A DNA stretch of 64,000 nucleotides, from assembly GCF_013816785.1 (NCBI RefSeq), contig NZ_JACDDV010000003.1:3838-67837 (forward strand), given 5' to 3'. The notes below the pieces were generated by a model that searched no databases, was not told the origin of the DNA, and was given only the letters and a program-made list of their open reading frames with translations. Source of the stretch: Sphingomonas sp. GTDB taxonomy: Bacteria; Pseudomonadota; Alphaproteobacteria; Sphingomonadales; Sphingomonadaceae. The position numbers and the translations under genes were made by a program. Below, one piece after another: positions 40,080 to 64,000 of the stretch (position 1 is its first letter; every line of letters starts with the position of its first letter).

Positions 40080-40133
40080 AGTCAAGCGCTAAACACCTTG
40101 ACCATCCTGAATTTTTCTAACGAAGGGCAAGCG

Positions 40134-40947: not shown

Positions 40948-41021
40948 CGCCCGGACTCCGTCACCTCGCCGCCTGACAGGTCGCGAAAACGACGGGCCAG
41001 CTCAGATCGAGGAATAACAAT

Positions 41022-46707: not shown

Positions 46708-47190
46708 AAATACGGACTAGCCGGTTCTATTTGTTCAAATGCACGCCACCGATCAGAAGGGTGCTGACGAGCCATGAAGAACTCAGCCGATTTAACGGCG
46801 GGTTTCGGGAGCCCTGTAAACATCCCGCGACGACTGCAATGAAACGCAAAGCAGACCCTGGCACTACCGCGAATCCAAGCTGCAAATAACCGGTGCTGTA
46901 ATAAATGGCGGAAATCTGGTATTTTTTATGGCTATGACACCAGTCCGTCGGCCGCAGTGCCAAGAAAATCGTCAAAAAGGGATGTGCAGACAATGGCTTA
47001 CGGCGCGACCAGTGCCGCAGCTTTATCTTGCCTTATGCCCGCCCCCTTCCCCAACCCGCCACCATTCATTCTTCTACGGCAAATCGAAGACCCCCCTGGA
47101 CGCAGGTGGACGCCCCTCACCCAGGAGAAAGGCGACCCAATTAGATGCCCCTCATAGTGGCCGATTTGCAGACGCTACCAGCATGATGTT

Positions 47191-48229: not shown

Positions 48230-48273
48230 ACTTTGTGCTGGATTTAGCGAACATCAGTGGCACTGACTGGGAC
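48210..48273. repeat. imperfect direct repeat of the integrase 5' end plus upstream region (right, functional-context copy)
   Basis: Contains the integrase GTG start (48227-48229, minus strand). Partner copy at 40134-40197. Confidence 0.6.
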
Positions 48274-48348
48274 CGATGTTCCGCCTTCAATCGAGCAATA
48301 TCAATGTGTTGAGACTTCCTGGGTTATCTTGCTACGAAGATTTTCTAG

Positions 48349-48364
48349 CCGTAGGGGTCACCAT
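48349..48364. repeat. attR: 16-bp direct repeat
   Basis: CCGTAGGGGTCACCAT is identical to the tRNA-Glu 3' end at 40064-40079. Confidence 0.8.
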
Positions 48365-48501: not shown

Positions 48502-49551
48502 ATGGCCTGGCCAATGCACGACAGACGCACGGCAATCCAGGCCATCGGTTCCTTCGCTGCTGCGGCCGCGCTGCCGTCCGCTGTTCTCAGTGCGACAGGA
48601 GTAAGGCCGAAGCCGCCCCGGCTGCGGCGCGGAGACACGGTGGGCCTGGTCAAACCGGCGGGTTTCCTAGCCGAGGAGTTCGATCTCCAACTCGCCTTGG
48701 AAACCATCGCCGCCATGGGTCTTATCCCCAAGCCGGCACCGCATCTGCAGGCGCGCTTTGGCTATCTGGCGGGAACCGACGAGGCCCGGGCGGCCGACCT
48801 CAACGCCATGTATGCCGACGACAGCGTGCGGGCAGTCTTCGCCGTTCGCGGCGGCTGGGGCTCCGCTCGAATCCTGCCCTATTTGGACTTCGACTTGATC
48901 CGCGCCAATCCAAAGCTGCTGATCGGCTTCAGCGACATCACGGCTTTGCACATGGCATTTGCAGCGCGAGTAGGATTCCCGACCATTCACGGCCCAAACG
49001 CCGCTGGTGCATGGGGAAAACTGTCCTGGAACGCCTTCAAAAGCATTGCCTTCGACGCCAAAACTCCCGTGTACGGCAACCCCATAGCGACTGAGGATCG
49101 GCTCGTGCAGCGCGATTGGCGCACGCAGACGATTCGCCCCGGCAAGGCCGTCGGGCGGCTGCTCGGCGGCAATCTCACAGTTCTCACTTCGCTGATGGGT
49201 ACGCCGTACTTGCCGGCGTTCGACAAGAGCATATTGTTCCTGGAGGATCTCGACGAAGCCGAATATCGTATCGACCGTATGCTCACGCAACTGGCGCTGG
49301 CCGGCGTGCTGCGTCGCGTCGCTGGCGTGATCTTCGGGCAGTGTACCAATTGCAAGTCTTCGGGCCCCTCCTATGGTGGATTTACCGTTTCGCAGGTGTT
49401 GAGGCAGCATCTGCAGCCGCTTGGCGTTCCGGTTTATCAGGGTGCGCTGATCGGACATGTCGACGACCAGTTCAGCATCCCGATCGGAGTTCGAGCCGAG
49501 ATGGACGCCACCGCCGGCACCATCCGAATACTCGAACCCGCTGTCTCCTGA
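48502..49551 (+). CDS. LD-carboxypeptidase (peptidase S66, LdcA-like) with Tat-type leader
   Basis: S66 blocks ...GYLAGTDEARAADLN..., GGWGSARILPYLD, and LIGFSDITALH (nucleophile Ser). Leader MAWPMHDRRTAIQAIGSFAAAAALPSAVLSA. Confidence 0.85.
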   Translation: MAWPMHDRRTAIQAIGSFAAAAALPSAVLSATGVRPKPPRLRRGDTVGLVKPAGFLAEEFDLQLALETIAAMGLIPKPAPHLQARFGYLAGTDEARAADLNAMYADDSVRAVFAVRGGWGSARILPYLDFDLIRANPKLLIGFSDITALHMAFAARVGFPTIHGPNAAGAWGKLSWNAFKSIAFDAKTPVYGNPIATEDRLVQRDWRTQTIRPGKAVGRLLGGNLTVLTSLMGTPYLPAFDKSILFLEDLDEAEYRIDRMLTQLALAGVLRRVAGVIFGQCTNCKSSGPSYGGFTVSQVLRQHLQPLGVPVYQGALIGHVDDQFSIPIGVRAEMDATAGTIRILEPAVS

Positions 49552-49704
49552 CGGACTTCGGCTGGTGCATCGATTCAACGCGAAGGTCTTGGCGCAGAGC
49601 TAAGGTCGCTCAGGTAATAACCTTGGGGTGTCCATCCAACGCTCTCGCGTGCAATGAAGCGGAGGATTGGCGAAATAGCAGTCTGGCGCGTGCGGGAGTT
49701 CACC

Positions 49705-51009
49705 GTGAATCATTTTGAGCTCCGTGACGGCGTACTACATTGCGAAGACGTGCCGCTCCCGCTGATCGCGCGGGAGGTGGGCACGCCGGTCTATGTCTAT
49801 TCGACGGCGGCCATGCAAAGGCATGCGCGGGTTTTCAAATCCGCGTTGGCTTCCCTCCGCGATCCGCTGGTCGCCTTTGCTGTCAAAGCCAACCCGAATG
49901 TCGCAGTTCTGGCGACGCTCGCGGCCGAAGGGTTCGGCGCGGACGTCGTTTCCGGAGGGGAATATCGCCGGGCGCGCGCAGCCGGGATTCCGGCGGACCA
50001 AATCGTGTTTTCCGGAGTCGGGAAAACCGCGGATGAAATGGAACTGGCGCTCGAGGGCGGGCTCTTCCAATTCAACGTCGAGTCCTTAGCCGAAGCCGAG
50101 ATGCTGTCGCACGTCGCGGTGTCCATGGGCCGTGTGGCTCCCATAAGCTTCCGGATAAATCCCGACGTGGCGGCGGGCTCTCACGCGAAGATCTCCACCG
50201 GCGGGGCCCAGGACAAGTTCGGGATCAACGCTGCCGACCTCATTCGCGCCTTCGAAATGGCCCGCGAGCTTCCCGGCTTGGAGGCGAAAGGGATTGCCGT
50301 TCACATCGGCAGTCAGCTTACCAGGCTCGAGCCCCTGGAGGCAGCGTTCACGAAACTCGGCGAGCTCATTGTTGAATTGAGGGCGGCGGGTCATTCGATC
50401 ACGGTGGCCGATCTGGGCGGCGGGCTCGGCGTTCCCTACGATCCCGCTGCGCCGTTGCCGCCAAGCCCTGCCGATTATGCTGCCCTGGTCGACCGTATTG
50501 CCGCTGGATGGGGGCTCCGGCTGGTGTTCGAGCCAGGCCGGCTGATCGTCGGCAACGCCGGCGTTCTCCTGACTCGGGTCATACGATTGAAGGAAGGACC
50601 CAAGTGCCCGTTCGTAATCGTCGACGCGGGGATGAACGACTTGATGCGCCCGAGCCTTTACGATGCTTGGCATGGGATCGAAGCGGTCGCTCCGAGAGGC
50701 GACAACATCGTCGCCGACATCGTCGGCCCGGTTTGTGAATCGGGCGACACCTTCGCGCGAGCGCGGGTCATCAGCCAGGTCGAGCCGGGCGACCTGATGG
50801 TCATTCGGACCGCCGGCGCTTATGCTGCGACGATGGGGAGCACCTATAATTCACGCCCTCTCGCCGCCGAGGTGCTGGTGAATGGCAGCGAATGGGCAGT
50901 TGTCCGCGAGAGGCAGGATGTGGAGGCGCTGATTGCCGGCGACATCGTCCCGCCTTGGCTACCCACAGGGGGTCGCGCCGACGGCGCGTCCCGTCGCGGC
51001 GGCACGTGA
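49705..51009 (+). CDS. lysA: diaminopimelate decarboxylase
   Basis: VNHFELRDGVLHCEDVPL...GTPVYVYS...AVKANPN (PLP Lys)...CESGD. GTG 49705 is preferred. It has about 18 extra C-terminal residues overlapping the next gene. Confidence 0.95.
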   Translation: MNHFELRDGVLHCEDVPLPLIAREVGTPVYVYSTAAMQRHARVFKSALASLRDPLVAFAVKANPNVAVLATLAAEGFGADVVSGGEYRRARAAGIPADQIVFSGVGKTADEMELALEGGLFQFNVESLAEAEMLSHVAVSMGRVAPISFRINPDVAAGSHAKISTGGAQDKFGINAADLIRAFEMARELPGLEAKGIAVHIGSQLTRLEPLEAAFTKLGELIVELRAAGHSITVADLGGGLGVPYDPAAPLPPSPADYAALVDRIAAGWGLRLVFEPGRLIVGNAGVLLTRVIRLKEGPKCPFVIVDAGMNDLMRPSLYDAWHGIEAVAPRGDNIVADIVGPVCESGDTFARARVISQVEPGDLMVIRTAGAYAATMGSTYNSRPLAAEVLVNGSEWAVVRERQDVEALIAGDIVPPWLPTGGRADGASRRGGT

Positions 51010-51890
51010 GGCTTCGCCACATCGAGATCTTCCATGCGGTCTACGTGAACGGTTCGGTCAGCGCGGCCGCGCGTGCATTGAACATATCGCAACCCTCGGT
51101 TTCCAAGACGCTCCGTCACGCGGAGTCGCTGCTCGGTTTCCAGTTGTTTCAGCGTACCAGCGGAGGTCTCGTGCCCACCGGAGACGCGCACGCCCTGTTC
51201 ATCGAGGTCAGCGAGATTCAGGATCGAGTCTACGCCTTACGCGAGGCAGGGCGCAATTTGAGACGCGGCGGGGGTGCGGTACTGCGAGTGTCGGCGCTCC
51301 CGTCGCTGTCTCTTAAAGCCGTGCCGACAGCGGTAGCGCAGTTTTTGCGAACCCATGAAACGGTCAAGTTCGACCTGCAGACGGTCCACCATGACGATCT
51401 CGTGCGCAAGCTGTACGAGCGCGAAACCGATCTCGCGGTCGCCTATCAGGTTCCGCCGGCTGGGCCGATCGGCTGCCAATTGCTCGGCGAGGGCGAGCTG
51501 GTCCTTCTCTACCGCGAGGAGGACATGCCCGCTGCGCCGCCACAGGTAGAACTCAGCCTCCTGCGCGATCAGCGTTTCATCAGCCTTGCCGACAGCGGCC
51601 CGATCGGCTTTCTCTTCACCCAAGAGCTGAAGCGCCTCGAGCTCGAACTCGACGCGGTCGTATCCGCCCGCACTTTCTACATCGCCACCGCGCTGGTCCA
51701 GCAGGGCGTCGGAATGACGGTCGTCGACAGTTTTACTGCCAAGGCATCGGTGGCACCGGGACTGTCGGTGCGCCCGCTAAATCCGCCGCTCACTTTCCCC
51801 GTGCACGGCATGTATCTGCTCAATCGGCCGCCGACGGCGCTCGCCACGGATTTCCTCAAGACGCTTGGGCGAGTGATCGGCGCTCCATAA
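51006..51890 (+). CDS. LysR-type transcriptional regulator
   Basis: HTH LRHIEIFHAVYVNGSVSAAARALNISQPSVSKTLRHAE. The GTG start overlaps the lysA stop (GTGA at 51006-51009). Confidence 0.9.
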   Translation: MRLRHIEIFHAVYVNGSVSAAARALNISQPSVSKTLRHAESLLGFQLFQRTSGGLVPTGDAHALFIEVSEIQDRVYALREAGRNLRRGGGAVLRVSALPSLSLKAVPTAVAQFLRTHETVKFDLQTVHHDDLVRKLYERETDLAVAYQVPPAGPIGCQLLGEGELVLLYREEDMPAAPPQVELSLLRDQRFISLADSGPIGFLFTQELKRLELELDAVVSARTFYIATALVQQGVGMTVVDSFTAKASVAPGLSVRPLNPPLTFPVHGMYLLNRPPTALATDFLKTLGRVIGAP

Positions 51891-51928
51891 CGGGAAGCTA
51901 TGGCGGGCGCCGCACTCGATATGCGCAG

Positions 51929-52969
51929 ATGCCGCTTGGCGGAAGATACGCTTCGCCCAAGATGATCCCCGCCCCGTACCTCCTCTACATTGGCCGCAGC
52001 GTCGATGCCGTCGCTATCAAGACCTCGCGGGGTCTCGCGACCTTCCGCCCCAAGGATTGCGTCGGAGAATTTCGCCACGACAATTGCCCACTGACTCTCG
52101 GGCTGCCCCGCCTCGGCATGGCCGAAGCCGTAGCGGCCGGCGCTCGGACGCTGGTGCTGGGAATCGCCAATCCCGGCGGCACGTTCGAACAGCATCTGAT
52201 CGAAGATGCCGAAGCTGCGCTCCACGCCGGGATGAATGTCGCCGCGGGACTTCATCAACGGCTGCGCGACCAGCAGCGGCTGGCCTCCCTCGCGCGCGAA
52301 CAGAAACTGCAACTGTTCGACGTTCGCGACCGGCCGGCGGATCCCGTCGTCGGCACAGGCTATCCGCGGCCGGGGCATCGACTCCTGACGGTCGGCACCG
52401 ACTGCTCGACCGGCAAGATGTATGCGGCGCTCGCCCTGACCTCCGCCATGCGCGAGCGCGGGCTTGCCGCGGACTTCCGTGCCACCGGCCAGACGGGCAT
52501 CCTGATCGCTGGCGCAGGAGTGCCTGTCGACGCCGTCATCGCCGACTTCATCTCGGGCGCGATCGAACAATTGGCCCCGGCCCGCAGCGACGGCGGCTGG
52601 GATGTGGTAGAGGGTCAGGGCTCGCTGTTTCATCCGTCGTTCGCCGGGGTTTCCACAGGGCTGCTTCACGGAGCGCAGCCGGAAGCGATCGTGATATGTC
52701 ACGATCCCGACCGCACCGACATGCGCGGCCTTCGGGGGCGGGCGCTTCCGGACCTGGCCGAATGCCTTGAGCAGAACCTGAACGTCGGCAGGCTCACCAG
52801 CCCCAACATCCGAGCCGTCGGCATCTGCCTCAACACGTCGCAAATGGATGCCGTGTCAGCACGGCGACTGTGCGAGCGTACCGAAGACCGTCTCGGCGTG
52901 CCCTGCACGGATCCAATCGCGTTTGGCGTCGAAAATATCGTCGACGAATTGTTATGCACCGTACCCTAG
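51929..52969 (+). CDS. DUF1611 domain protein (DgcN-like putative D-glutamate N-acetyltransferase)
   Basis: ...LTVGTDCSTGKMYAALAL...VEGQGSLFHPSFAGVS... is the typical DUF1611 pattern. Alternative ATG at 51962. Confidence 0.85.
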   Translation: MPLGGRYASPKMIPAPYLLYIGRSVDAVAIKTSRGLATFRPKDCVGEFRHDNCPLTLGLPRLGMAEAVAAGARTLVLGIANPGGTFEQHLIEDAEAALHAGMNVAAGLHQRLRDQQRLASLAREQKLQLFDVRDRPADPVVGTGYPRPGHRLLTVGTDCSTGKMYAALALTSAMRERGLAADFRATGQTGILIAGAGVPVDAVIADFISGAIEQLAPARSDGGWDVVEGQGSLFHPSFAGVSTGLLHGAQPEAIVICHDPDRTDMRGLRGRALPDLAECLEQNLNVGRLTSPNIRAVGICLNTSQMDAVSARRLCERTEDRLGVPCTDPIAFGVENIVDELLCTVP

Positions 52970-53949
52970 ACGCGCGACACGAACGCTTCGCCCTTAGCCA
53001 TCCCTTCCGGATTTCCCGCGGCGTCAAGACCGTCGCCGACGTGATCACCGTGACCGTTCGGGAGGAGGGCGCGACCGGCCGTGGAGAGGGCGTTCCCTAC
53101 CAGCGGTACGGAGAGGATGTGGCCAGCGCCCTCGCAGCGGTGGAGGAGGTTCGGGAAGCCGTCGAGGCCGGTGCCAACAGGCACGGGCTGCTGTCGATCC
53201 TGCCAGCCGGCGCCGCTCGCAACGCGATCGATTGCGCGCTCTGGGATCTCGAGGCGCGTCGCTCGAAACGCGACGTGGCGAACATGATCGGAGCGCCGCC
53301 GCCACGGCGCATGACCTCCGCTCTGACCATTGTCATCGACTCTCCCGATGCGATGGAATCTGCCGCCCGGCGCTTCGCGGATGCCCCGCTCCTCAAGGTA
53401 AAAGTCGACTCGAAAGACCCGGCCGCCCAGATCCGAGCGGTGCGAAGGGGGGCGCCCAACGCGGCCCTGATCGTCGACCCCAACGAAAGCTGGGACAAGC
53501 CTTTGGTCGAGGCAATGCAGCCGGTGCTCGTCGAAGCCGCCGTGGCGCTGCTCGAACAGCCCGTGCCCGCTGACGCAGACGCCTGGCTCGAAGGCTTCGT
53601 GTCCGCTGTTCCGATCTGCGCCGACGAAGCGGTCCATTTAGCTTCGGACCTTCCGACAGTCGCCCGGCGCTACCAGGCGGTGAACGTCAAGCTCGACAAG
53701 AGCGGCGGCCTCACCGCCGCACTGGAACTCGCCCGCGCGGCGCGGGCGAGCGGCCTCGGCTTGATGACCGGCTGCATGGTCAGCTCCTCCTTGTCGATTG
53801 CGCCCGCATTGCACATTGCCCGACTCTCCGACTTCGTCGACCTTGACGGCCCGTTGTGGCTGCGGGAGGACAGGCCCGGTGGGGTCAAGAACGAGGACGG
53901 CATCCTCCTTCCCCCCGAAGCGGGGTTTTGGGGGACATCATGCGGTTGA
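52954..53949 (+). CDS. enolase-superfamily dipeptide / N-acyl-amino-acid epimerase (L-Ala-D/L-Glu epimerase / DgcA-like)
   Basis: MR/MLE fold blocks: ...LKVKV (catalytic Lys region), IVDPNESW, LEQPV, ADEA, NVKLDKSGG. 16-nt overlap with the DUF1611 gene. Confidence 0.85.
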   Translation: MHRTLDARHERFALSHPFRISRGVKTVADVITVTVREEGATGRGEGVPYQRYGEDVASALAAVEEVREAVEAGANRHGLLSILPAGAARNAIDCALWDLEARRSKRDVANMIGAPPPRRMTSALTIVIDSPDAMESAARRFADAPLLKVKVDSKDPAAQIRAVRRGAPNAALIVDPNESWDKPLVEAMQPVLVEAAVALLEQPVPADADAWLEGFVSAVPICADEAVHLASDLPTVARRYQAVNVKLDKSGGLTAALELARAARASGLGLMTGCMVSSSLSIAPALHIARLSDFVDLDGPLWLREDRPGGVKNEDGILLPPEAGFWGTSCG

Positions 53950-55508
53950 TCCGGCAAGCCTTGATAGCAGCGGCTTTCCTTGCGCTCACCGCTTGCGCTG
54001 CCCCAAGCTTGGAAACGGCGGATCTGCTGATTCGAGGCGGCACTGTCTACACCGGTTCGGATGCGCCATTTACCGGCGACGTCGCGATCCGCGGCGACAA
54101 GATTTACGCGGTCGGCCGAAGTGTAGGCGGCCGCGCCAAGCGCATCATCGACGCGAGGGGCATGATCGTTGCCCCCGGGTTCATCGATCCGCATACGCAT
54201 CTGGACGAAGAACTGAGTTCCGACGACGCTCGTACCCGGCTCGTTCCCGCCTTCCTGATGCAGGGCGTCACCACGGCGTTCATCGGCAATGACGGCGGCG
54301 GCGATCCGGACGTCGCGGCTGTTCTGCGTAGCGCAGCGACCAGGCCTGTCGGGATCAACTATGCCGCATTTGTCGGCTTTGGCGCAATTCGCAAGACAGT
54401 CGTCGGGGAAGCGAACCGCGCGCCCGCGCCCGGCGAGGTCGCGCGGATGGAGGCGATGGTCGCTCGCGCGATGTGCGAAGGCGCGCTGGGCCTTTCGACC
54501 GGGCTGTTCTACGCACCGGAAAGCTTCGCCGACACCGGAGAGATCGTCGCCTTGGCTAGGAAAGCAGGAGCGCTTGGCGGCATCTACGACACCCACATTC
54601 GCGACGAATCCAGCTACACCGTTGGCCTTGCCGCGGCGGTTGACGAAGCAATCGCCATCGGCCGTCAGGCAAGGCTGCCCATCCACATTTCCCATATCAA
54701 GGCGCTCGGCGTCGATGTGCAAGGTCAGGCGCCGCTGATCATCGCCCAAATCGAGGCCGCGCGTCGTTCCGGCCAGCGCATCACCGCCGACCAATATCCC
54801 TGGTCCGCGTCCGGCACCAAACTGGCCGCCGCGCTGGTGCCGCTGTGGGCGCAGGACGGAGGGCGCCGCGCGTTGCTCGATCGCCTTGGCGATGCCGCGC
54901 TCGCCGAGCGGCTCCGCTCCGGAATGGCCGAAAATCTGCGTAAGCGCGGTGGTGCGGAAGCGCTGCTGATCACCCAAGGCGAGTTCAAGGGACACACACT
55001 CGCCCAGCTGGCGAAATCTCGAGGCGAAGACCCAATCGCCGCGGCAATGACCGTGATCCGGCTTGACGATCCCGCTGTCGCTTCATTCAATCAGAGCGAG
55101 CAGGATATCGCCGCGTTCATGCGGCAGCCGTGGGTGATGACCAGCTCCGATGCCTCTCCAGGCCATCCGCGCGTCTACGGCAGCTTCGCTCGCAAATATG
55201 CGAAATATGTGGTCGCGGAGCACGTGATCTCCCTGCGCGACTTCAACGAGCGTAGCTCGACCCTCACCGCAGAGACGTATGGGCTAGCTGGCCGCGGGCA
55301 CCTGAAGCCTGGCGCCTTTGCCGACATAGTCGTGTTCGATCCCAAGCGCTTCGCCGCCCGCGCCACTTATGAGCAGCCGACCCTGCTCGCCATTGGCGTT
55401 CGCCATGTGCTCGTCAACGGCGTGCTGGCGGTCGATGATGGCCAGCTCACCGGCGGGGCAGCTGGCCGCGCGCTGGCCCACGTGGCGACCCCCGGGAGTT
55501 GCCGATGA
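53940..55508 (+). CDS. N-acyl-D-amino-acid deacylase (D-aminoacylase family amidohydrolase), predicted lipoprotein
   Basis: LLIRGGTVYTG...APGFIDPHTH...ISHIKALG...ADQYPWSASGT. Leader MRLIRQALIAAAFLALTAC (lipobox LTAC). 10-nt overlap with the epimerase gene. Confidence 0.85.
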   Translation: MRLIRQALIAAAFLALTACAAPSLETADLLIRGGTVYTGSDAPFTGDVAIRGDKIYAVGRSVGGRAKRIIDARGMIVAPGFIDPHTHLDEELSSDDARTRLVPAFLMQGVTTAFIGNDGGGDPDVAAVLRSAATRPVGINYAAFVGFGAIRKTVVGEANRAPAPGEVARMEAMVARAMCEGALGLSTGLFYAPESFADTGEIVALARKAGALGGIYDTHIRDESSYTVGLAAAVDEAIAIGRQARLPIHISHIKALGVDVQGQAPLIIAQIEAARRSGQRITADQYPWSASGTKLAAALVPLWAQDGGRRALLDRLGDAALAERLRSGMAENLRKRGGAEALLITQGEFKGHTLAQLAKSRGEDPIAAAMTVIRLDDPAVASFNQSEQDIAAFMRQPWVMTSSDASPGHPRVYGSFARKYAKYVVAEHVISLRDFNERSSTLTAETYGLAGRGHLKPGAFADIVVFDPKRFAARATYEQPTLLAIGVRHVLVNGVLAVDDGQLTGGAAGRALAHVATPGSCR

Positions 55509-56755
55509 GCGTAGTGCGCGGCTGGTTTGCGATACCGCTGTGGAAGCGCGTGCTGGGCGCGCTTGCGCTCGGCGTTGCCTTCGCCTTCCTGTGGCCCGGA
55601 GCGACTCCGGCGGTAGCGTTCATGGGCGATCTGTTCGTTCGCGCGATTCGCATGCTGGTGGCGCCGATCGTGCTCGTGACGATTGCCGCCGGAATCACCA
55701 CGCTTGGCGACCCGAAGCGGCTCGGCGGACTCGGCGGCCGCGCCATTGGACTGTTTGCGCTTACCACGGCCATTGCGGTCTCCGTGGGCATGGCCGTGGC
55801 GACGTTGATCCGGCCCGGCGTGGGCGCGCCGCTCGGCACCGCGGCCCCACATGCACTGGGAGAGCCAGTCACTCCGTATGAGCAGCTCATCGGAATCATC
55901 CCGGTCAATATCGTCGAGGCACTGGCCAAAGGCGATATGCTGGCGCTCATCTTCGTGTCGATTATCATTGGCGTTGGGACGGTCGTGGCCGGTGAGCCGG
56001 GGAAGCCGTTCGCCACCCTTCTGCAATCCACCTCTTCGGTGCTGTTCAAGATCGTCGGCATCGTCATGGAAGCGACGCCTTTCGGCGTATTCGCGCTGAT
56101 TGCGAACGCCGTCGCTGCCAACGGCGCCGCGGTGTTCGTCAACGTCGGCTGGCTTGCGCTTGCGGTGGTCCTTGGGTCGTTGATTCAAATACTCGTGGTC
56201 CACACATTGTTGTTGAGGTTCGTCGCTCGGGTGCCGATTCTCCCTTATTTCCGCAGCATCGTTGATGCGCTGGTGGTCGCCTTCGCGACCGCGTCGAGCT
56301 CCGCGACTCTGCCGGTGGCAATGCGCGTCGCGGAAAAGAATCTCGGGGTCGCGCGGCCGATTTTCTCGACGGTCCTGCCGCTGGGGGCGAGCATCGGCAA
56401 GGACGGCACGGCAATGTATGTCGGACTGCTCAGCCTGTTCGCGCTCCAGGCGTTCGGGGCACCGCTCACACCCACGGTCTACGGGCTCGTCCTGTTGACC
56501 GGCGCTCTCGCCGCGTTCGGCACCGCGCCGGTGCCATCCGCCTCGCTGTTCATGCTTGCCGCGGTGCTTTCGGCGGTCGGCATCGCCCCCGAGCAGACCG
56601 CGCTGGTGGTCGGTTTCGTGTTGCCGTTCGACCGGCTCCTCGACATGACACGCACGGTTCCCAGCGCGAGCGCCAACCTAGCGGTGACGACGGCGGTCGC
56701 CCGCTTGGAAGGCGAGCTGAACGAGGAGGTCTACCGCGCCCGACCGGAAGCCTGA
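55505..56755 (+). CDS. dicarboxylate/amino acid:cation symporter (DAACS/GltP family)
   Basis: ...FVRAIRMLVAPIVLVTIAAGI..., ...SSSATLPV..., ...GASIGKDGTAMY... conserved DAACS blocks. ATGA overlap with the upstream gene. Confidence 0.9.
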   Translation: MSVVRGWFAIPLWKRVLGALALGVAFAFLWPGATPAVAFMGDLFVRAIRMLVAPIVLVTIAAGITTLGDPKRLGGLGGRAIGLFALTTAIAVSVGMAVATLIRPGVGAPLGTAAPHALGEPVTPYEQLIGIIPVNIVEALAKGDMLALIFVSIIIGVGTVVAGEPGKPFATLLQSTSSVLFKIVGIVMEATPFGVFALIANAVAANGAAVFVNVGWLALAVVLGSLIQILVVHTLLLRFVARVPILPYFRSIVDALVVAFATASSSATLPVAMRVAEKNLGVARPIFSTVLPLGASIGKDGTAMYVGLLSLFALQAFGAPLTPTVYGLVLLTGALAAFGTAPVPSASLFMLAAVLSAVGIAPEQTALVVGFVLPFDRLLDMTRTVPSASANLAVTTAVARLEGELNEEVYRARPEA

Positions 56756-56824
56756 GCACACTCGCTGTGAGGAGTTGGCCGCTCGCCGTATTGTTCCGGC
56801 GGCTATCGTCGCTAACGTCAGCTG

Positions 56825-58306
56825 ATGTCATCGAAACCGACAGCCTGGCTCCCGGCTATCCTTGGTCTGGCTCTCGGCCTTGCTTCGCCGGCCGCCGGTC
56901 GAGAGGCGCCCCGACAGCTCGGGCTCAAACAGCGAGTAGAATTGATTCTCGCCGAAGCAGGCCCCGGGACACGCTTCGGACTGGTGGTCGCAACGGCGGA
57001 CGGCACGGAGCTGGTCGCCATTGCCCCCGACGCACGCTTCATGCCGGCGTCGAATACCAAGATCTTCACCACCGCGGCGGCCTTCGAAACACTCACCGGA
57101 CTCGATAAGCCTGACGTTGAAGGCGGCACGACGGTCCGGCTCGAGCGCAACGGACGAAGCGTTCCGGACGTGATTCTCGAAGGGCGCGGTGACGCACGTC
57201 TGTCGAGCGCTCCCGGCTGCCTGACCGACTGTCTGGCGAGCCTGGCCGACGCGGTGGCCGCGAAGACTCGGGTCGTGCGTGACGTGGTCGGAGACGATCG
57301 CCTCTTTCCCGATGAGCGGTGGAGTCCGGGGATGAGCTGGAACAACATCCCGACGAGTTCCGGCACCGCAATTTCCGCGCTGACTCTCGACGATAACGAA
57401 CTCGCGCTGCGCGTCACGCCTGGCGCCCTCGGACAGCCACCGAAGTTCGAAATCGCTTCTTATTACTCGGTTGAAAACCGGGCGATCACCGTGCCGGAGG
57501 GTAAGACCCAACTCAGCTTCGAGCGACTGCCGGGCGGCACCGTCGTACGCCTGATCGGCACAATTGCGGTCGACGCCGAACCTGAACTTCTTTCCCTCGG
57601 GCTCGACGAGCCGGCGCACTACGCGGCGTGGCGCTTCAGGGGCTTGCTCCAGGAGCGCGGTGTTCGCGTTACCGGTAATGTTACCGCCAGGCATCGGCCA
57701 AGTGCGGCGCCCGGTGGTCCGGTCATCCGCGACATCGCGCCACGCCCGGCTTCCGCCGGCGGCGAAGTCCTTGCCCGGCTGGCGCCACGGCCGCTCGCCG
57801 AGGATCTCAGGCTGATCAACAAGGTCAGTCAGAATGTTCACGCAGAACTGATTCTCCGGCGGGTCGCCAATCGCCGCGGCAGCGGCTCGATTGCCGACGG
57901 AATCGCCGAAGTGCGCGCGATGCTCGAGCGGGCTGGCGTGCCGCGCTCGGCCTACGATCTTTCAGACGGATCGGGGATGTCGACCTACAATCGGGTCGCT
58001 CCGCGCGGAATGGTCAAGCTACTGCGCTGGATCGCCGCTCAGCCTTGGGGGGCCAGCTGGCGCTCCACGCTTCCCGTCGCCGGCGTCGATGGAACGCTCG
58101 CCAAGCGATTCCGCGGCACTCTTCTTCAGGGCCGCCTGTTTGCCAAGACAGGATCCCTTAACGCCACCGCTGCGCTATCCGGCTACCTGATCGCCAAAAG
58201 CGGCCGCACCTTGCTGTTCTCGGCCTATGCCAACGATGTCCCCGAGGACGTCAGCGCGACTAAGCCTATGGACGCCGCATTGCAGCTGATCGCACAGGAA
58301 AATTAG
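56825..58306 (+). CDS. dacB: D-alanyl-D-alanine carboxypeptidase/endopeptidase (PBP4, peptidase S13)
   Basis: Signal peptide, SxxK as PASNTKIF, ...KVSQNVHAE..., ...AKTGSL (KTG box). Confidence 0.9.
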   Translation: MSSKPTAWLPAILGLALGLASPAAGREAPRQLGLKQRVELILAEAGPGTRFGLVVATADGTELVAIAPDARFMPASNTKIFTTAAAFETLTGLDKPDVEGGTTVRLERNGRSVPDVILEGRGDARLSSAPGCLTDCLASLADAVAAKTRVVRDVVGDDRLFPDERWSPGMSWNNIPTSSGTAISALTLDDNELALRVTPGALGQPPKFEIASYYSVENRAITVPEGKTQLSFERLPGGTVVRLIGTIAVDAEPELLSLGLDEPAHYAAWRFRGLLQERGVRVTGNVTARHRPSAAPGGPVIRDIAPRPASAGGEVLARLAPRPLAEDLRLINKVSQNVHAELILRRVANRRGSGSIADGIAEVRAMLERAGVPRSAYDLSDGSGMSTYNRVAPRGMVKLLRWIAAQPWGASWRSTLPVAGVDGTLAKRFRGTLLQGRLFAKTGSLNATAALSGYLIAKSGRTLLFSAYANDVPEDVSATKPMDAALQLIAQEN

Positions 58307-58527
58307 CCGTTCATAGCGGAAACGGCGAAGCCCGCACACGCCGGAGCGGTGGCGGCCCTTGAAGCATGATCGGTGCCGTAACTGTGGCGCACACAACACG
58401 ATTACGGCGTCGCAACGAAAAGATGCCGACAGGTTATAGCTCCCGGAATGAAAACTATGGCGTTTTGTGACGCTTTTGTTCCTTAATGCCCGGGCTGTGC
58501 GCCACATGCGCACTGGGGGGACTTGCC

Positions 58528-61482
58528 ATGCTTTGTGCTAAATCGCTCAAACGCGCCCTGGTTTCGGGAACTGCTCTTGCAGCCGTCACCGGCGCCGTCG
58601 CAGTTCCGGCATACGCGCAGGTCAGCGTCAGAGACACGACGCCTCCAGCGGCGACCCCGACGACAGCCGCCACGCCGGACGAGGACAAAGAAATCATCGT
58701 CACCGGATCGCGGATCAAGCGCGACCCGAACGAGAGCGCGCTGCCGCTGCAGATCATCACCACCCAGGAACTCGAGCGCAACGGGATCAGCAATCCCGAG
58801 CAGCTGGTCGCTTTTCTTCCGACCAACGGCTCGGGGGCCGACAACCTCGCGAGCAACTCCGACATTGTCGCTGGCCAGCAGCGCGGCAACAATGGCGCGT
58901 CATTCGCCAATTTGCGCGGCCAGGGCTCGGGCGCGACGCTGGTTCTGCTCAACGGCCGGCGGGTCGCCGCCCACGGCCTCCAGGGCTCAGCGGTCGACGT
59001 CAACCAGATCCCGTTCGCCGCGGTCGAGCGGGTCGAAGTGTTGAAGGAAGGCGCGTCGGCGATCTACGGAACCGACGCGATCGGCGGGGTGATCAACTTC
59101 ATCCTCCGCAAGGATTATGAAGGCCTTGGAATCCAAGGCTTCACCGACTTCACCCAGCGCGGCGACCATACGATCTACCGGACCTCGGCGATCGCCGGCT
59201 ACGGCAAGCTTTCCGACCAGGGCTTCAACGTCATGGCGGCGGTCAGCTATAGCGATATCCCGGAGCTTCGCGGCGACCAGCGCAAATTCGTCGACACTTT
59301 TCAGCCCGAACGCGGCCTGTCGGTAGACACGCGGGGCACCCCGCATGCGACGCTGATCAGGTTGGCCGGAACCTTCTTCCCGAGTAACGGCTCCTTTCCG
59401 TTTATTCCGGGCACGACCACTCGAACCAGCGGCGGAATCAACGTCCTCGATCTGCCCGGCGGCGAAGGCTGCACTTCGGTCCCCGGTATGGACGCCTACG
59501 ATACCCGGCTGTGGGAGTTCCCGGAGGCCGAGTTCGCCTGCGCCTGGGACACCGGCCGCGCGGCTGTGCTCCAGCAGCCGCTCAAGACCCTGACCTGGCT
59601 CGGCCGCGGTGTCGTCCGGCTGGGAAACCACGAGATTTCGGCCGAGGCCACCGGTTCCGACGCGACCGCGAGCAAGCGTTTCTCGAACCTTCAGATCACT
59701 CCCAACACCACTACCCAGCGCTATGGCTATCCGGTCGGAGCGCCAAATTACGACGCGATCTACAACCGGCTGATCGCCGCTTTTCCCGAGCTTGCGACCC
59801 GGCCGAAGGCGCCCTTCGCCTATCGCTGGCGGTGCATCGAGTGCGGGCGCCGCGAGATCTCCACCGATACCAAGACCAAGCGCTTCGCGCTCGGCGCCGA
59901 CGGCCCGCTGTTTGCCGGCTGGGACTATCGCGCCGGCGCGTCCTACGCCTCGAGCGAATCCCAATCTGAACTTGGCTCCGGCTATTATTTCCGGGGCACG
60001 ACCAGCACCGGCGCGCCCGACCCCAATGTGCCGATCGCGCCTGGGGCGACGCTTCCGGGGATCATCGGCCTGCTCAATACCGGGATCATCAACCCGTTCC
60101 TGCTCCCCGGCCAGGCCCAGTCGCAGCAGGCGCTCGACGCGCTTGCCGCGGTCTCGGCCGAAGGAACCATTCTCTATGGCGGCAAATATTCAGTCACCCA
60201 GCTTGACGGATCGGTGTCGGGGCCGCTGTTCCGGCTGCCCGGCGGCCGGGTCAGGGCGGCACTCGGGGTCGATCACCGCAAGGAGAAATACCGGTTCAAC
60301 GGCGACCCCCGCGAAGCCGCGGCCCAGCCCGTGATCATCGCCGCACCGTTCGACAACGAGAATGCGCTGAAAGGCGCGTCGCGGACGATCAAGGCGGTCT
60401 ATGGCGAAATCCTGTTCCCGATTCTCGACTCTCTCGAGGTCACGCTCGCCGGACGGGTCGATGATTATTCGGACGTCGGAAGCACCACCAATCCGATGGC
60501 CTCGTTTAAATTCCGGCCGATCCGGCCGCTGATGCTGCGCGGCAATTACAACACCGGCTTTAGGGTTCCTAGCTTCAACCAGATTTTCAACGGCCGACAG
60601 GAATCCGATTTCGCCGGTCGTGACCTCGCCGATCCGGCAAAATGCCCGGGCGGTGTGCCCAACACGACCGATCCGGGATGCGCCTCGCTCGACCGTCAGA
60701 TCGACATCATCAACGGTGGCAACCCGAACCTCAGGCCTGAGACCGCGAAGCTGGCGAGCCTCGGCGTGGTCTTCCAGCCGCTGCGCGACTTCAGCGCCTC
60801 GGTCGACTGGTGGGTGATCAATCGCGATAACAACATCCAGGTGCTGAGCCTTCGACAGCTGGTCGACAATTTCGAACTGTTCCAGGACCGCTTCATCCGC
60901 GATTCGAGCGGCACTCTGCTCGCCATCGACCAGACTTGGATCAATGCCGGCGCTTCGAAAACGCAAGGACTCGAAATCGCCCTTCGCGGCGGCGGTCGGC
61001 TGCTGGGCGGGCGCCTGACGGGCGGCCTCGACGGCACTTATCTGTTGAAGAAGAAGGAACAGCTGGTCGACGGCGGCGCGTTCGAAAACCGCCGCGGAGT
61101 CTTCTCCTTCTCGGGCGACCTCGGCCTTAAGTGGAAGCACAATGCGTTCGTCAGCTTCAACCGCGAGCCCTGGACCTTCACCTTCACCCAGATCTTCCGC
61201 TCGAGCTACAAGAACCATCAATTGCCTGGAGTCGAAAACGGCTCCGTCGACCCGCCGAACGACATCGATCGGGTAGCCAAATATGTGACCTACAATCTTA
61301 GCGGGTCGGTCGACATCAACAAGCGGATGCGGATGACCGCGGGAATCAAGAATCTGTTCGACAAGGACCCGCCGTTCGCGATCACCTATGACACCAATTT
61401 CGGCAGCGGCAGCTCGTGGGAGCCGCGCGTCGCCGATCCGCGCGGCCGCTCGTTCACGATGAACGTGGACGTGAAGTTCTGA
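58528..61482 (+). CDS. TonB-dependent outer-membrane receptor
   Basis: Signal peptide ending AYAQ, TonB box EIIVTGSRI, plug domain, about 22-strand barrel, terminal ...MNVDVKF. Confidence 0.95.
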   Translation: MLCAKSLKRALVSGTALAAVTGAVAVPAYAQVSVRDTTPPAATPTTAATPDEDKEIIVTGSRIKRDPNESALPLQIITTQELERNGISNPEQLVAFLPTNGSGADNLASNSDIVAGQQRGNNGASFANLRGQGSGATLVLLNGRRVAAHGLQGSAVDVNQIPFAAVERVEVLKEGASAIYGTDAIGGVINFILRKDYEGLGIQGFTDFTQRGDHTIYRTSAIAGYGKLSDQGFNVMAAVSYSDIPELRGDQRKFVDTFQPERGLSVDTRGTPHATLIRLAGTFFPSNGSFPFIPGTTTRTSGGINVLDLPGGEGCTSVPGMDAYDTRLWEFPEAEFACAWDTGRAAVLQQPLKTLTWLGRGVVRLGNHEISAEATGSDATASKRFSNLQITPNTTTQRYGYPVGAPNYDAIYNRLIAAFPELATRPKAPFAYRWRCIECGRREISTDTKTKRFALGADGPLFAGWDYRAGASYASSESQSELGSGYYFRGTTSTGAPDPNVPIAPGATLPGIIGLLNTGIINPFLLPGQAQSQQALDALAAVSAEGTILYGGKYSVTQLDGSVSGPLFRLPGGRVRAALGVDHRKEKYRFNGDPREAAAQPVIIAAPFDNENALKGASRTIKAVYGEILFPILDSLEVTLAGRVDDYSDVGSTTNPMASFKFRPIRPLMLRGNYNTGFRVPSFNQIFNGRQESDFAGRDLADPAKCPGGVPNTTDPGCASLDRQIDIINGGNPNLRPETAKLASLGVVFQPLRDFSASVDWWVINRDNNIQVLSLRQLVDNFELFQDRFIRDSSGTLLAIDQTWINAGASKTQGLEIALRGGGRLLGGRLTGGLDGTYLLKKKEQLVDGGAFENRRGVFSFSGDLGLKWKHNAFVSFNREPWTFTFTQIFRSSYKNHQLPGVENGSVDPPNDIDRVAKYVTYNLSGSVDINKRMRMTAGIKNLFDKDPPFAITYDTNFGSGSSWEPRVADPRGRSFTMNVDVKF

Positions 61483-61493
61483 GGCCGTCCTGA

Positions 61494-62699
61494 CTAACGC
61501 CGAAGCAGCTCGAGAGAGCGGGTCAGCGCCGCTTCTTCCGCCGTCCGATAGGCGCTGCGCCCGCGCGGCGGGCTTTCGGCAAGGCCAGTGACAAAATAAG
61601 CGACGCCGGTCCGGCTGGCACGGTCGATCCACAACCCGGATCGCAACCCGTAAGCGTCCCCGGAATGACCCACCCGACCGATTCCGTCGCCAGCCGGATC
61701 ATCGTTGCAGCCCGGCATCCGGGCCGGCATTTGCTGGCTGGCGAGCCCGTAGCTACAATAATAACCATGGTCAGTATCGCCGTTGCTGCCGTTGAAACGC
61801 CACGCCGGCGAGAGCAACGTGTCTACCGACTGGGGCGAGAGGATGCGCACTCCGTCCAGCGTGCCGCCGTTGAGCAGCATTCGCCCGGCCCGAGCCAATC
61901 CGCGGGCCGAGATTCGGAGCCCGCCCTGGGGAGCGAACAAAGCTCCATTCTCGCCGGCTCGCCATCTCGACAGATCGCAGCTTCCATCCTCGCCAGGAAC
62001 CGCCGGACATTCTGGCCGCTTCCCGCCAAGGTCGTCGCGCACCGTTTTGCCGTCCTGCATCAGGACCACCGCGCGCGCGATCGCCTCGTCGCTGCAGCCG
62101 GACCAGTTCAAGCACGCATCAAGCCGCATCGGCGCGAGCACCTCGGCCCGCATCCACCGGTCAAAGCGTTCGCCGGTGATGCGCTCGACCAGCGACGCGA
62201 GGATCGGGAAGTTCAAATTCGAATAGGTGAAATAGCCGCCGGGCGGATGGCGATCGTCCCACACCTTTGCGTCCGCCACGGAGCCCTCGATCGAGGCGCC
62301 GAGCGGAATCGCCCAATAGTCGATCCCGTCGCGAACGCTCGACGTGTGCGACAATAACATGCGCGCGCTAATCGGCCGGGCGGGGAAGGCCGGATTGCGC
62401 AACCGCCACCCGAGCTTGGCCGAGACATCGCTGTCGAGATCGAGCCGGCCTTGCTCGACCAGACGCATGATGCCGATGGCGACGAACAGCTTGGTAATCG
62501 AGGCGACGCGCGCTGGATCGTCCGGGGTGATTGCGCGGCTGCTTTGCGGATCTGCCAACCCGTCTGCGAAGCTGCCGACCTCGCCGCCTTGGTCGAAGGC
62601 AACTCCGACCTGCGCCACGGGCGGAGCATCGTCATGCGTCTGATCCCGAATCGTGGCGCAGCCGGACAGCATGGAAAGCAAAGCTATGGTGAGGCGCAT
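61494..62699 (-). CDS. beta-lactamase-fold serine hydrolase (class C / DD-peptidase-like), lipoprotein
   Basis: Lipobox LSGC, SxxK as SITK, YSN motif. 401 aa. Confidence 0.85.
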   Translation of the reverse strand: MRLTIALLSMLSGCATIRDQTHDDAPPVAQVGVAFDQGGEVGSFADGLADPQSSRAITPDDPARVASITKLFVAIGIMRLVEQGRLDLDSDVSAKLGWRLRNPAFPARPISARMLLSHTSSVRDGIDYWAIPLGASIEGSVADAKVWDDRHPPGGYFTYSNLNFPILASLVERITGERFDRWMRAEVLAPMRLDACLNWSGCSDEAIARAVVLMQDGKTVRDDLGGKRPECPAVPGEDGSCDLSRWRAGENGALFAPQGGLRISARGLARAGRMLLNGGTLDGVRILSPQSVDTLLSPAWRFNGSNGDTDHGYYCSYGLASQQMPARMPGCNDDPAGDGIGRVGHSGDAYGLRSGLWIDRASRTGVAYFVTGLAESPPRGRSAYRTAEEAALTRSLELLRR

Positions 62700-62797
62700 T
62701 TCCGGTTCTCAAACCCCTCGCAAAAATTCGAACGCGACAACTGCCAACTGATCGCCCGCGACCGCGGTGGCAATTCAATACCGTTGGAAGACGAAAG

Positions 62798-64000
62798 CTA
62801 GCGCGGCCTTCTCTCCTTCGCGAGCCTGCTCATCAAAATCGCGGCGCGCTTGGCCTGGAGATAGATCGATCCGATGTCGACCTTCTCGCGGGGGGAATGC
62901 GAGCCACTCCCGGCAGGGCCGAGTCCGACGAGCCCGTCGACGTCCTTGGCGACGAAACTAATGTCGGCGGCGCCACGCCGAACCGGGTCGAGCTCGCCCA
63001 TTTCCGGCAAGTTCATGTCGCGATTGACTTGGTTCAGGCGGTTGAGCAGCGCGCGACTGCCCTCGGTGGGGGCCATGGGCGGATAGCCGTCGGGAGCGAA
63101 TTTGATTTCCGCCGTCGCGCCGATCAGCGGCTGAGCGACGATGGCGCGCATCTTCGCCTGGGCGCGGGCGATCTGCTCGGGGCTGATCCCGCGCATGTCG
63201 CCGCGAGCGATTGCGGTTCCGGCAATGACGTTGGTCTTGCCGGTCGCGGCAATGCGCAGATTGTCCCCGGTGAGCTCGGCCGAGGTGCCACCGCCGATCA
63301 GCCCGACGTTGAAGGTCAGCTTGTCCTCGGTGAGATCGCGGCGGAATGTGTCGATGATTCGCGCCAGCTCGTAGATTGCTCCCGAGCCGGCGCTGGGCGA
63401 GAAGATCCCGCTGGAATGGCCGCTTCGCGCCGCTACCACGAGGGTCCACTCGTCCGAACTGCGCCGCGCGATCGAGCCCATGTCGCGTCCGTCGACTTGG
63501 GCCAAAGCTTCGAAATCGAGCGCGACATCCGCCCATTTGCCGGCCGCGATCAGATCGCGCCGAGCGATTTCAAGCGGCCCGGCATCCTCTTCATCGCCGC
63601 TCATAAACACGGTCATGTCCGCGTTTTTCAACGTTCCGGCTGCCTTCATGGCACGCACCGCGGCTACGATCACCGCCATCCCGCCCTTATCGTCGCCGGC
63701 GCCTGGGCCGAGGCCTAAATTTCCTTCCCGGCTCCACCGCTGGAACGGGGAGTCGGGTTCGAATACCGTGTCGAGATGGCCGATCAGCAGCAAGCGCTTG
63801 CCGCGGCCGTTGCCCTTGTGACGAGCGACGATATGGCCGGCGCGGTTAGCTGTGCTGATGTCGATCCAATCAACCTTGAAGCCGAGCGGCTCGAGTTCGA
63901 CGCGAAGCATGTCCCCAACCGCCTTCACGCCGGCAAAGTTCATGGTCCCGCTATTCTGATTGACCCACTTCTCGAGCATTGCGACCGTGCGCTCCTGCTC
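62798..64000 (-). CDS. M20 family metallopeptidase, carboxypeptidase G2-like (5' end outside window)
   Basis: ...LLIGHLDTVF...GPGAGDDKGG... is collinear with CPG2-type glutamate carboxypeptidases. The ORF is open past 63979 to the window edge. Confidence 0.85.
   Translation of the reverse strand, partial: EQERTVAMLEKWVNQNSGTMNFAGVKAVGDMLRVELEPLGFKVDWIDISTANRAGHIVARHKGNGRGKRLLLIGHLDTVFEPDSPFQRWSREGNLGLGPGAGDDKGGMAVIVAAVRAMKAAGTLKNADMTVFMSGDEEDAGPLEIARRDLIAAGKWADVALDFEALAQVDGRDMGSIARRSSDEWTLVVAARSGHSSGIFSPSAGSGAIYELARIIDTFRRDLTEDKLTFNVGLIGGGTSAELTGDNLRIAATGKTNVIAGTAIARGDMRGISPEQIARAQAKMRAIVAQPLIGATAEIKFAPDGYPPMAPTEGSRALLNRLNQVNRDMNLPEMGELDPVRRGAADISFVAKDVDGLVGLGPAGSGSHSPREKVDIGSIYLQAKRAAILMSRLAKERRPR

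Follow-up and report, generated by a model that had tools for sequence, protein, structure and literature searches.

A 64,000-nucleotide (nt) stretch of DNA from Sphingomonas sp. (contig NZ_JACDDV010000003.1 of assembly GCF_013816785.1, forward strand, positions 3,838 to 67,837; hereafter the window, to which all coordinates refer) ends in a series of eleven genes that includes a TonB-dependent receptor (TBDR), several exported hydrolases and a known module for D-glutamate (D-Glu). On balance, it is probable by a narrow measure that this locus encodes an envelope-spanning pathway for the uptake and consumption of peptidoglycan stem peptides, possibly muropeptides. Relatives of the receptor lie beside peptidoglycan genes in several bacterial classes, and the hydrolases carry export signals. 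The more specific proposal, that the receptor family is a dedicated outer-membrane importer of stem peptides or muropeptides and, together with its exported LD- and DD-peptidases, defines a "peptidoglycan utilisation locus" that takes the peptide apart in the periplasm, is made tentatively, with confidence falling a little short of even.

Protein families were assigned using Pfam and NCBIfam profile searches, with the NCBIfam equivalog cut-offs applied, and start codons followed the gene calls on a public contig that carries an identical receptor and the same genes. The eleven genes run without a break from 48502 to the window end at 64000, no unrelated gene being interposed in the open reading frame (ORF) listing or the profile searches. 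An initial annotation had listed eleven consecutive genes of named families here; all were present, in succession, and each family assignment was upheld by the profile search of the protein concerned. Nine genes are on the + strand. The first three encode an S66 peptidase with a twin-arginine leader (48502-49551; Pfam Peptidase_S66 and S66C domains), the diaminopimelate decarboxylase LysA, which converts meso-diaminopimelate (meso-DAP or mDAP) to L-lysine (49654-51009; TIGR01048, 439 bits, cut-off 298), and a LysR-type regulator (LTTR; 51006-51890; Pfam HTH_1 and LysR_substrate). These are followed by the D-glutamate N-acetyltransferase DgcN (51962-52969; Pfam DUF1611_N and DUF1611), the enolase-superfamily (MR_MLE) N-acetyl-D-glutamate racemase DgcA (52954-53949), a D-aminoacylase-family lipoprotein belonging to the subtype V amidohydrolases (53940-55508; Pfam Amidohydro_3) and a DAACS (SDF) inner-membrane symporter (55505-56755; Pfam SDF, 325 bits). 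The last two genes on this strand encode an exported PBP4-type S13 DD-carboxypeptidase/endopeptidase (56825-58306; Peptidase_S13, 260 bits; TIGR00666, 208 bits, cut-off 108) and the TBDR, of 984 amino acids (58528-61482; Pfam Plug, 63 bits, and TonB_dep_Rec_b-barrel, 130 bits). Successive gaps among the nine genes are 102, -4, 71, -16, -10, -4, 69 and 221 nt, and the packing is operon-like, with overlapping stop and start codons. The remaining two genes, on the - strand, converge on the 3' end of the receptor gene and encode an exported lipoprotein of the beta-lactamase/S12 fold (61494-62699; Pfam Beta-lactamase, 140 bits) and a CPG2-like M20 metallopeptidase whose N terminus lies beyond the window end (62798-64000; Pfam Peptidase_M20 and M20_dimer). 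A scan for sigma-70 promoters and terminators gave no signal above background.

The receptor has a Sec leader ending in ...VPAYA-QV, then a TonB-box-like EIIVTGSRI, and a C terminus reading VKF; with its plug, barrel, leader and final aromatic residue it has the make-up of TonB-dependent outer-membrane transporters. Models of named receptors scored far under their cut-offs (the best among siderophore, B12 and haem types being BtuB, 83 versus 600 bits; FepA, 77 versus 493 bits; CirA, 73 versus 745 bits). The same was true of the SusC/RagA model TIGR04056 (22 versus 368 bits), with no SusD-like gene adjoining, the neighbors being PBP4 and the S12-fold lipoprotein, and of the TonB-Xanth-Caul model (32 bits, cut-off 310). 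Likeness to solved receptors in the Protein Data Bank (PDB) was confined to the plug region. By model scores and PDB comparison, then, the protein did not group with siderophore, B12 or glycan receptors, and these identities were rejected. Relatives of the receptor number in the thousands, the closest coming from Sphingomicrobium, Sphingomonas, Allosphingosinicella and Tsuneonella.

Using an alignment of 15 receptors, 80 receptor loci of 50 to 78% identity were retrieved from one-genome-per-species contigs, representing Sphingomonadales, Betaproteobacteria (Massilia, Telluria, Undibacterium, Rubrivivax, Leptothrix and Inhella), Steroidobacteraceae and Maricaulis. Their neighborhoods were counted by tblastn with the window proteins and by clustering of all ORFs, and the clusters that this added were verified by profile search. 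Among the latter were an AmpG family (333 bits), an Amidase_2 plus PG_binding_1 protein, MurQ (365 bits) and a D-Ala-D-Ala dipeptidase (Peptidase_M15; D-Ala, D-alanine), together with an ElsL-like LD-carboxypeptidase, GHL10, SBP_bac_5, NagX-like and NagK-like proteins and a cytoplasmic PBP4B-like protein. It was found that 56 of the 80 loci carried S66, S13, AmpG, the M15 dipeptidase, AmiD, MurQ or ElsL within 5 kb of the receptor, and that the immediate neighbor was peptidoglycan related in 59; gene co-occurrence is thus conserved well beyond close relatives. PBP4 (S13) lay immediately upstream of the receptor in 18 of the 80 loci and AmpG in 8, while S66 was immediately downstream in 22 and an S12-fold protein in 11, the S12-fold protein being next to the receptor in 17. 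Each such gene is expected once or a few times per genome of a few thousand genes. Measured against this expectation, which is an estimate, such genes directly adjoin the receptor far more often than chance would allow, each of them in about one locus in four.

At least five gene orders were identified among the loci: PBP4 > receptor > S12-fold; receptor > S66; PBP4 < Gate < > SBP5 > receptor > S66; receptor > LTTR > M15 > S66 < PBP4 > AmiD > GHL10 > MurQ; and GHL10 > receptor, accompanied by ElsL, MurQ, LTTR, S12-fold and M15. The order is therefore shuffled across classes with the membership kept, which points to functional coupling and not to inherited synteny, and this is a stronger argument than the counts. 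Nine betaproteobacterial loci (L016, L019, L066, L067, L069, L072, L075, L078 and L079) carry the receptor family within large clusters that also hold an AmiD-type amidase, MurQ, a NagK-like kinase, a NagX-like acetyltransferase, a GHL10 lipoprotein, a D-Ala-D-Ala dipeptidase, an SBP_bac_5 protein, a Gate-domain membrane protein, an AstE/M14-like protein and an S66 or ElsL-like LD-carboxypeptidase. These clusters look like complete muropeptide utilisation loci. In seven Sphingomonadaceae loci (L005, L013, L018, L036, L060, L061 and L071), an AmpG-family permease and a leaderless PBP4B-like protein of the beta-lactamase fold are divergent from the receptor, a pair that is absent from the window version.

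The nearest relatives of the window locus, L004 and L082, have the arrangement PBP4-receptor-S12-M20 / LysA-S66 and are without the dgc block, so that the window looks like a core set with an inserted block of LTTR, dgcN, dgcA, deacylase and symporter. The dgc module accompanies the receptor in a few Sphingomonadaceae and recurs no more than 10 kb away from it in L008, L018, L036 and L044. LysA adjoins the receptor in differently arranged loci (L004, L005, L013 and L082), representing three arrangements, and L006 holds only a LysA-like gene of 44% identity.

Leaders of four hydrolases, which the initial annotation had reported, can all be read in the window. That of the S66 peptidase contains a twin arginine (MAWPMHDRRTAIQAIGSFAAAAALPSAVLSA, also read as MAWPMHDRRTAIQ...), PBP4 has a Sec-type leader, and the leaders of the amidohydrolase (MRLIRQALIAAAFLALTAC, lipobox LTAC) and the beta-lactamase-fold protein (MRLTIALLSMLSGC, lipobox LSGC) are of the lipoprotein type; orthologs of the amidohydrolase also have signal peptides. 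The M20 peptidase had likewise been described as exported with a visible leader. That leader falls outside the window, as the gene runs off its end: the reading frame stays open up to the final base, and its alignment to the 417-position model NF004788 begins only at position 50. Export itself is consistent with the orthologs in L002 and L004 (84 to 85% identity), which start with MAFLFRALCAAFALTLSAHASA, a Sec leader. RR leaders are present in almost all receptor-adjacent S66 homologs, examples being TRRQIMAGLAA and SRRGFGTLMAAA, which indicates that the exported S66 is a family trait and not a start-codon artifact.

In an alignment of the S66 peptidase with 13 homologs, the columns of S144 (GFSD), E248 (FLED) and H319 (GH) were invariant; these residues would correspond to the Ser-Glu-His triad in the structures of Pseudomonas aeruginosa LdcA and MccF. 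The best PDB matches were MccF microcin C immunity proteins, with LdcA scoring nearly equally. In PBP4, the SNTK and KTG (KTGS) motifs were read, and its PDB matches were DacC, R39 and PBP4. The beta-lactamase-fold protein has the motifs SITK, YSN and HSG, and its best PDB matches were the Streptomyces R61 DD-peptidase, an alkaline D-peptidase and an S12 peptidase, compared with only about 28 bits for class C beta-lactamases. For the amidohydrolase, a member of the D-aminoacylase family (background in PMC12017989), matches were found to the D-aminoacylase 1M7J of Alcaligenes (211 bits) and the N-acyl-D-glutamate deacylase 3GIP of Bordetella (187 bits), and by sequence comparison it is about equidistant from the Alcaligenes (hydrophobic) and Bordetella (D-Glu) types. 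The M20 protein was best matched by carboxypeptidase G2.

The DUF1611 protein and the epimerase are DgcN and DgcA, judged by their scores against curated models, and their biology is already known. DgcN reached 489.5 bits against the equivalog NF041892 (cut-off 480) over the full model, positions 1 to 326, and DgcA reached 430 bits against NF042940 (cut-off 400); the two genes are on the same strand and overlap by 16 nt (52954-52969). For this pair, "D-Glu or L-Ala-D-Glu chemistry" had been suggested in the initial annotation. The D-Glu part holds, in the form of the published enzymes; against the L-Ala-D/L-Glu epimerase (YcjG-type) model NF011708, DgcA scored 310 bits, under the cut-off of 343. 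The DgcN-DgcA route reportedly runs from D-Glu to N-acetyl-D-Glu to N-acetyl-L-Glu (Yu et al. 2023, ISME J 17:537). The D-Glu pathway published in 2023 is reference 27 of PMC12363236 and is used in PMC10845958 and PMC11747546. No cytoplasmic deacetylase for N-acetyl-L-Glu was identified in the locus. The SDF symporter scored under the NCBIfam cut-offs for DctA, GltP and SstT, and its substrate is not assignable by profile.

The regulator gene starts within lysA, with 4 nt of overlap at the lysA stop codon. Its product found its best NCBIfam model in NF008239, the E. coli LysR model (which gives 591 bits on E. coli LysR itself), and shares 32% identity with E. coli LysR over the full length. 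A palindrome, CCATA-N9-TATGG, with a T-N11-A box, was read from the sequence at 51885-51903, where it overlaps the stop codon of the LTTR gene 59 nt ahead of dgcN. It has the form of an LTTR-binding site and, going by that form only, may have this putative function. Related LTTRs (29 to 36% identity) occur in betaproteobacterial clusters without lysA, which weakly favors an activator that responds to DAP and acts on the dgc operon as well, over an ordinary lysA-lysR pair.

Unlikely, although it has more in its favor than the explanations taken up further below, is that independent modules merely stand side by side: a lysA-lysR pair for lysine, a stand-alone dgc operon with its transporter and deacylase, and a receptor for some other D-amino-acid compound (N-acyl-D-amino acids, poly-gamma-D-glutamate fragments or non-ribosomal peptides), with no single peptidoglycan pathway. 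The likeness of the regulator to E. coli LysR and its coupling to lysA fit this explanation. So does the separability of the parts, since L004 and L082 lack the dgc-deacylase-symporter genes between S66/LysA and PBP4/receptor. The S66 relatives are for the most part without the receptor, and import of N-acyl-D-amino acids was the function earlier ascribed to a TonB-dependent transporter lying beside a D-aminoacylase (PMC3400609). What it leaves unaccounted for is that PBP4, S66, AmpG, AmiD, MurQ, the D-Ala-D-Ala dipeptidase and ElsL recur by the receptor in unrelated arrangements, that LysA lies by the receptor in three arrangements, and that dgc recurs within 10 kb of it in four loci.

Read as one pathway for stem peptides, the locus would work as follows. 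The receptor would carry cell-wall fragments through the outer membrane in a TonB-dependent manner. In the periplasm, PBP4 would cleave D-Ala-mDAP cross-links and trim terminal D-Ala, the Tat-exported S66 peptidase would take D-Ala off tetrapeptides, and the S12-fold lipoprotein and the CPG2-like M20 peptidase would cleave the remaining bonds of D-residues. The M20 peptidase is a candidate, by way of a guess, for the gamma-D-Glu-mDAP bond, because its relatives, the DapE enzymes, cut an N-acyl-DAP bond, which is similar. The D-aminoacylase-family lipoprotein would release D-Glu from L-Ala-D-Glu or another N-acyl-D-Glu, and the SDF symporter would bring D-Glu, and perhaps other products, into the cytoplasm. 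There, DgcN and DgcA would convert D-Glu to N-acetyl-L-Glu, in line with the published enzymology, and LysA would turn the released meso-DAP into lysine. The LysR-like regulator, possibly sensing DAP, to which E. coli LysR responds, or else a related product, would turn on at least the dgc operon. The chemistry of DgcN/DgcA and LysA and the activities of PBP4 and LdcA-type enzymes are established in characterized members elsewhere. Because AmpG, AmiD and MurQ accompany the receptor in other loci, the substrate of the receptor family may be sugar-bearing muropeptides, which are too large for porins and would explain the need for TonB; the window version looks specialised for the peptide part. 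Growth on peptidoglycan and on D-Glu has been documented in other bacteria (PMC6962226 and PMC11747546).

A number of observations weigh against this pathway. Tri- and tetrapeptides in free form are small, and with that size it is not obvious that they need a TonB route. By tblastn, the window has no homolog of AmpG, an amidase (AmiD), MurQ, M15 or an AstE/M14 (MpaA)-like protein, although such genes could be present in other parts of the genome; with no amidase, glycosidase, AmpG or MpaA homolog in the window, peptide release from the glycan and the gamma-D-Glu-mDAP step are left without a gene. No gene for D-Ala catabolism was found in the locus either. The claim that each gene maps onto one bond or residue of the stem peptide was overstated, as the gamma-D-Glu-mDAP bond, the MurNAc-L-Ala amide (MurNAc, N-acetylmuramic acid) and D-Ala catabolism have no gene assigned by homology. 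The S66 peptidase scored 185 bits against the LdcA equivalog NF008424, under the cut-off of 378, and is by sequence as alike to MccF as to LdcA. The lysA-lysR genes could be an ordinary pair for lysine biosynthesis, because the regulator is closest to E. coli LysR and translationally coupled to lysA. Among the receptor loci, M20 was present in only 2 of the 80 and D-aminoacylase in 4, all close relatives, and many of the 80 are related, so that their counts are not independent events. The association is also one-sided: in a reverse search with an S66 alignment, which retrieved 80 metagenome loci, the receptor was present in 6, and in 5 of the 39 that were at least 9 kb long. S66 was consequently rejected as a marker of the system, the exported S66 family evidently being used in many other contexts.

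Less probable again than independent modules is maintenance or recycling of the cell's own wall, in which PBP4, S66 and the S12-fold protein would trim, in the periplasm, the cell's own sacculus and its turnover products and the receptor would recapture leaked fragments, feeding on foreign debris not being the selected function. Among the classical proteins of wall remodelling and recycling are PBP4, LD-carboxypeptidase and AmpG (PMC13046382), and the recycling genes AmpG and MurQ adjoin the receptor in other taxa. Against this, products freed inside the periplasm need no TonB-energised importer, and dgc and LysA would route D-Glu and DAP to L-Glu and lysine, with no reuse of intact tripeptide and no Mpl in the locus. 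The machinery of own-wall recycling and of scavenging is the same, and sequence alone cannot separate the two. Very improbable is a role in defence, with the receptor as a gate for Trojan-horse peptide antibiotics or beta-lactam-like molecules that S66, the beta-lactamase-fold protein and PBP4 detoxify in the periplasm, since, although MccF immunity proteins top the S66 matches and the receptor has a beta-lactamase-fold protein on one side and a penicillin-binding protein on the other, the S66 scores to MccF and LdcA are nearly equal, the beta-lactamase-fold protein is closest to DD- and D-peptidases, and DgcN/DgcA, LysA, AmpG, AmiD, MurQ and the D-Ala-D-Ala dipeptidase are left unexplained.

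The region upstream of the receptor gene (58380-58500, + strand) is kept in orthologous loci (L002, L005, L013 and L036), even where the upstream gene is a different one (AmpG in L005 and L036). It reads ...AACTRTGGCG ... AAAACTATGGCG-N6-TGACnCTTTTGTTnCTTAATG and contains two exact copies of AACTRTGGCG, at 58380-58389 and 58453-58462; a one-mismatch copy lies upstream of dgcN (51896-51905). Across the window the motif count was not significant (10 versus 5.6 expected). The block may be an operator or promoter. Separately, a 16.8-kb contig (L081; JAITZQ012536074.1 of GCA_020064125.1) carries the identical receptor and upstream genes; the contig numbers of that assembly reach into the millions, and the same bacterium was probably carried along in a large assembly that is non-bacterial or metagenomic.

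The locus had been described as sitting directly next to a tRNA/island hotspot. An island does adjoin it at a tRNA-Glu gene, the only RNA element matched in an Rfam search of the window, and the locus is not part of that island. Between the tRNA-Glu gene and the locus lies an 8.3-kb segment (40080-48348) with czcCBA-type heavy-metal efflux genes (CzcA, 1390 bits) and an integrase gene. On either side of this segment stands one copy of an exact 16-nt direct repeat, CCGTAGGGGTCACCAT (40064-40079 and 48349-48364), equal to the 3' end of tRNA-Glu, and by their sequence these repeats look like the att sites of an integrated island. The P4-type integrase (47191-48229, - strand) is degraded, consisting of a 329-amino-acid ORF with the arm-binding and central domains and without the catalytic domain, and a frameshifted 86-amino-acid fragment (47191-47451) that is similar to the beginning of the catalytic domain; the island has probably lost its mobility. 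A second repeat of 22 nt (95% identical), just past tRNA-Glu (40134-40155) and at the start of the integrase gene (48210-48231), was possibly left behind by a previous integration or a tandem one. As the locus starts just outside the repeats of the tRNA-Glu 3' end, it was rejected as island cargo and is the native flank of tRNA-Glu.

Elsewhere in the window, a putative second RND-type efflux operon (15757-21442) was recognized from ORF sizes and N-terminal sequences, with a membrane-fusion-like gene, a 1053-amino-acid pump and an outer-membrane factor-like gene. An ORF at 22180-23463 (- strand) appears MurA-like by eye from its N terminus; MurA catalyzes the first committed step of peptidoglycan synthesis, and the ORF has no evident tie to the locus.

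In soils and oceans, peptidoglycan and its D-amino acids make up a large store of organic nitrogen and carbon that turns over slowly, and a route for peptidoglycan fragments across the Gram-negative outer membrane is not established. The receptor family, tied as it is to stem-peptide hydrolases, is a concrete importer candidate with a complete gene set that is open to study in culturable Sphingomonas, Sphingorhabdus, Massilia or Undibacterium strains; culturable carriers of the receptor include Sphingomonas hankookensis, Sphingorhabdus spp. and Massilia agrisoli. If the proposal is true, TBDR-rich oligotrophs would gain a specific route to bacterial necromass and its D-amino acids, the DgcN/DgcA pathway would be joined to its natural source of D-Glu, and cell-wall peptides would be added to the substrates of TonB-dependent nutrient loci. 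It would also bear on recycling in alphaproteobacteria without LdcA or Mpl, and drugs that mimic peptidoglycan might be able to enter by way of the receptor. Of the scavenging interpretation in the initial annotation, the gene families and the conserved receptor neighborhood, the two computational checks named there, stand; the one-gene-one-bond scheme and the novelty of the dgc module do not, and lysA-lysR is possibly housekeeping.

The system had also been put forward as undescribed, which has to be narrowed, as TonB-dependent uptake of peptidoglycan products and of N-acyl-D-amino acids has already been proposed (PMC3400609 and PMC4173781). In a full-text literature search, only such context-based or indirect proposals were identified, and neither the receptor family nor a peptide-directed locus of this kind was found described. 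A plausible reading of the gene content is a TonB-dependent nutrient locus directed at the peptide half of the peptidoglycan and joined to a D-Glu module that is already known. It shares with the DgcN-DgcA pathway the adjoining, overlapping genes above the equivalog cut-offs and a regulator gene beside them; what sets it apart is that the two genes share a single string with those for an exported D-aminoacylase-family lipoprotein, a DAACS symporter, PBP4 and a TBDR. Cytoplasmic recycling (AmpG-LdcA-MpaA-YcjG-Mpl) acts on the same bonds inside the cell (PMC13046382). The recycling route of E. coli and Pseudomonas (AmpG, AmpD, NagZ, LdcA, MpaA, YcjG and Mpl) thus has in common with the locus the stem-peptide bonds, an S66 peptidase and an enolase-superfamily enzyme around D-Glu. 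Unlike that route, the hydrolases here are exported (Tat, Sec or lipoprotein), a TonB-dependent outer-membrane step is added, and the products would go to L-Glu and lysine without being religated; the window is without AmpG, AmpD, NagZ, MpaA and Mpl.

RagAB of Porphyromonas gingivalis is a TonB-dependent oligopeptide importer in which the SusC-like RagA is partnered by the RagB/SusD lipoprotein. Both systems are TonB dependent with peptides as nutrients, known for RagAB and proposed here, and the receptor described here has only 22 of the 368 bits required by the SusC/RagA model. Tannerella forsythia scavenges environmental muropeptides via AmpG (PMC5388701 and PMC7670621), likewise an uptake of the peptidoglycan fragments of others by a Gram-negative bacterium, but this serves MurNAc auxotrophy, with only the inner-membrane AmpG step defined and no stem-peptide catabolic module. 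For marine bacteria (the gammaproteobacterium NOR5-3 and Pedobacter), Tang et al. (2012; PMC3400609) predicted from genome context that TonB-dependent transporters encoded next to a D-aminoacylase, or to peptidoglycan genes, import N-acyl-D-amino acids and peptidoglycan. The type of inference is the same as ours, and their work included no multi-taxon neighborhood analysis and no tie to Dgc, LysA, S66 or S13. TonB-dependent loci for molecules containing N-acetylglucosamine (GlcNAc) are known as the NagA cluster of Caulobacter and the Nix system of Xanthomonas (PMC4173781 and PMC13046382), and NixC of Xanthomonas was proposed, from genetics, as the first outer-membrane transporter of peptidoglycan products (PMC4173781). 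Like the locus described here, the Caulobacter and Xanthomonas loci combine a receptor and periplasmic hydrolases with an inner-membrane transporter, cytoplasmic enzymes of catabolism and a regulator, with peptidoglycan products as a suggested substrate; they target the sugar, with glycosidases, NagA/NagB and a phosphotransferase system or NagP, whereas the Sphingomonas locus holds only enzymes directed at peptides and amino acids.

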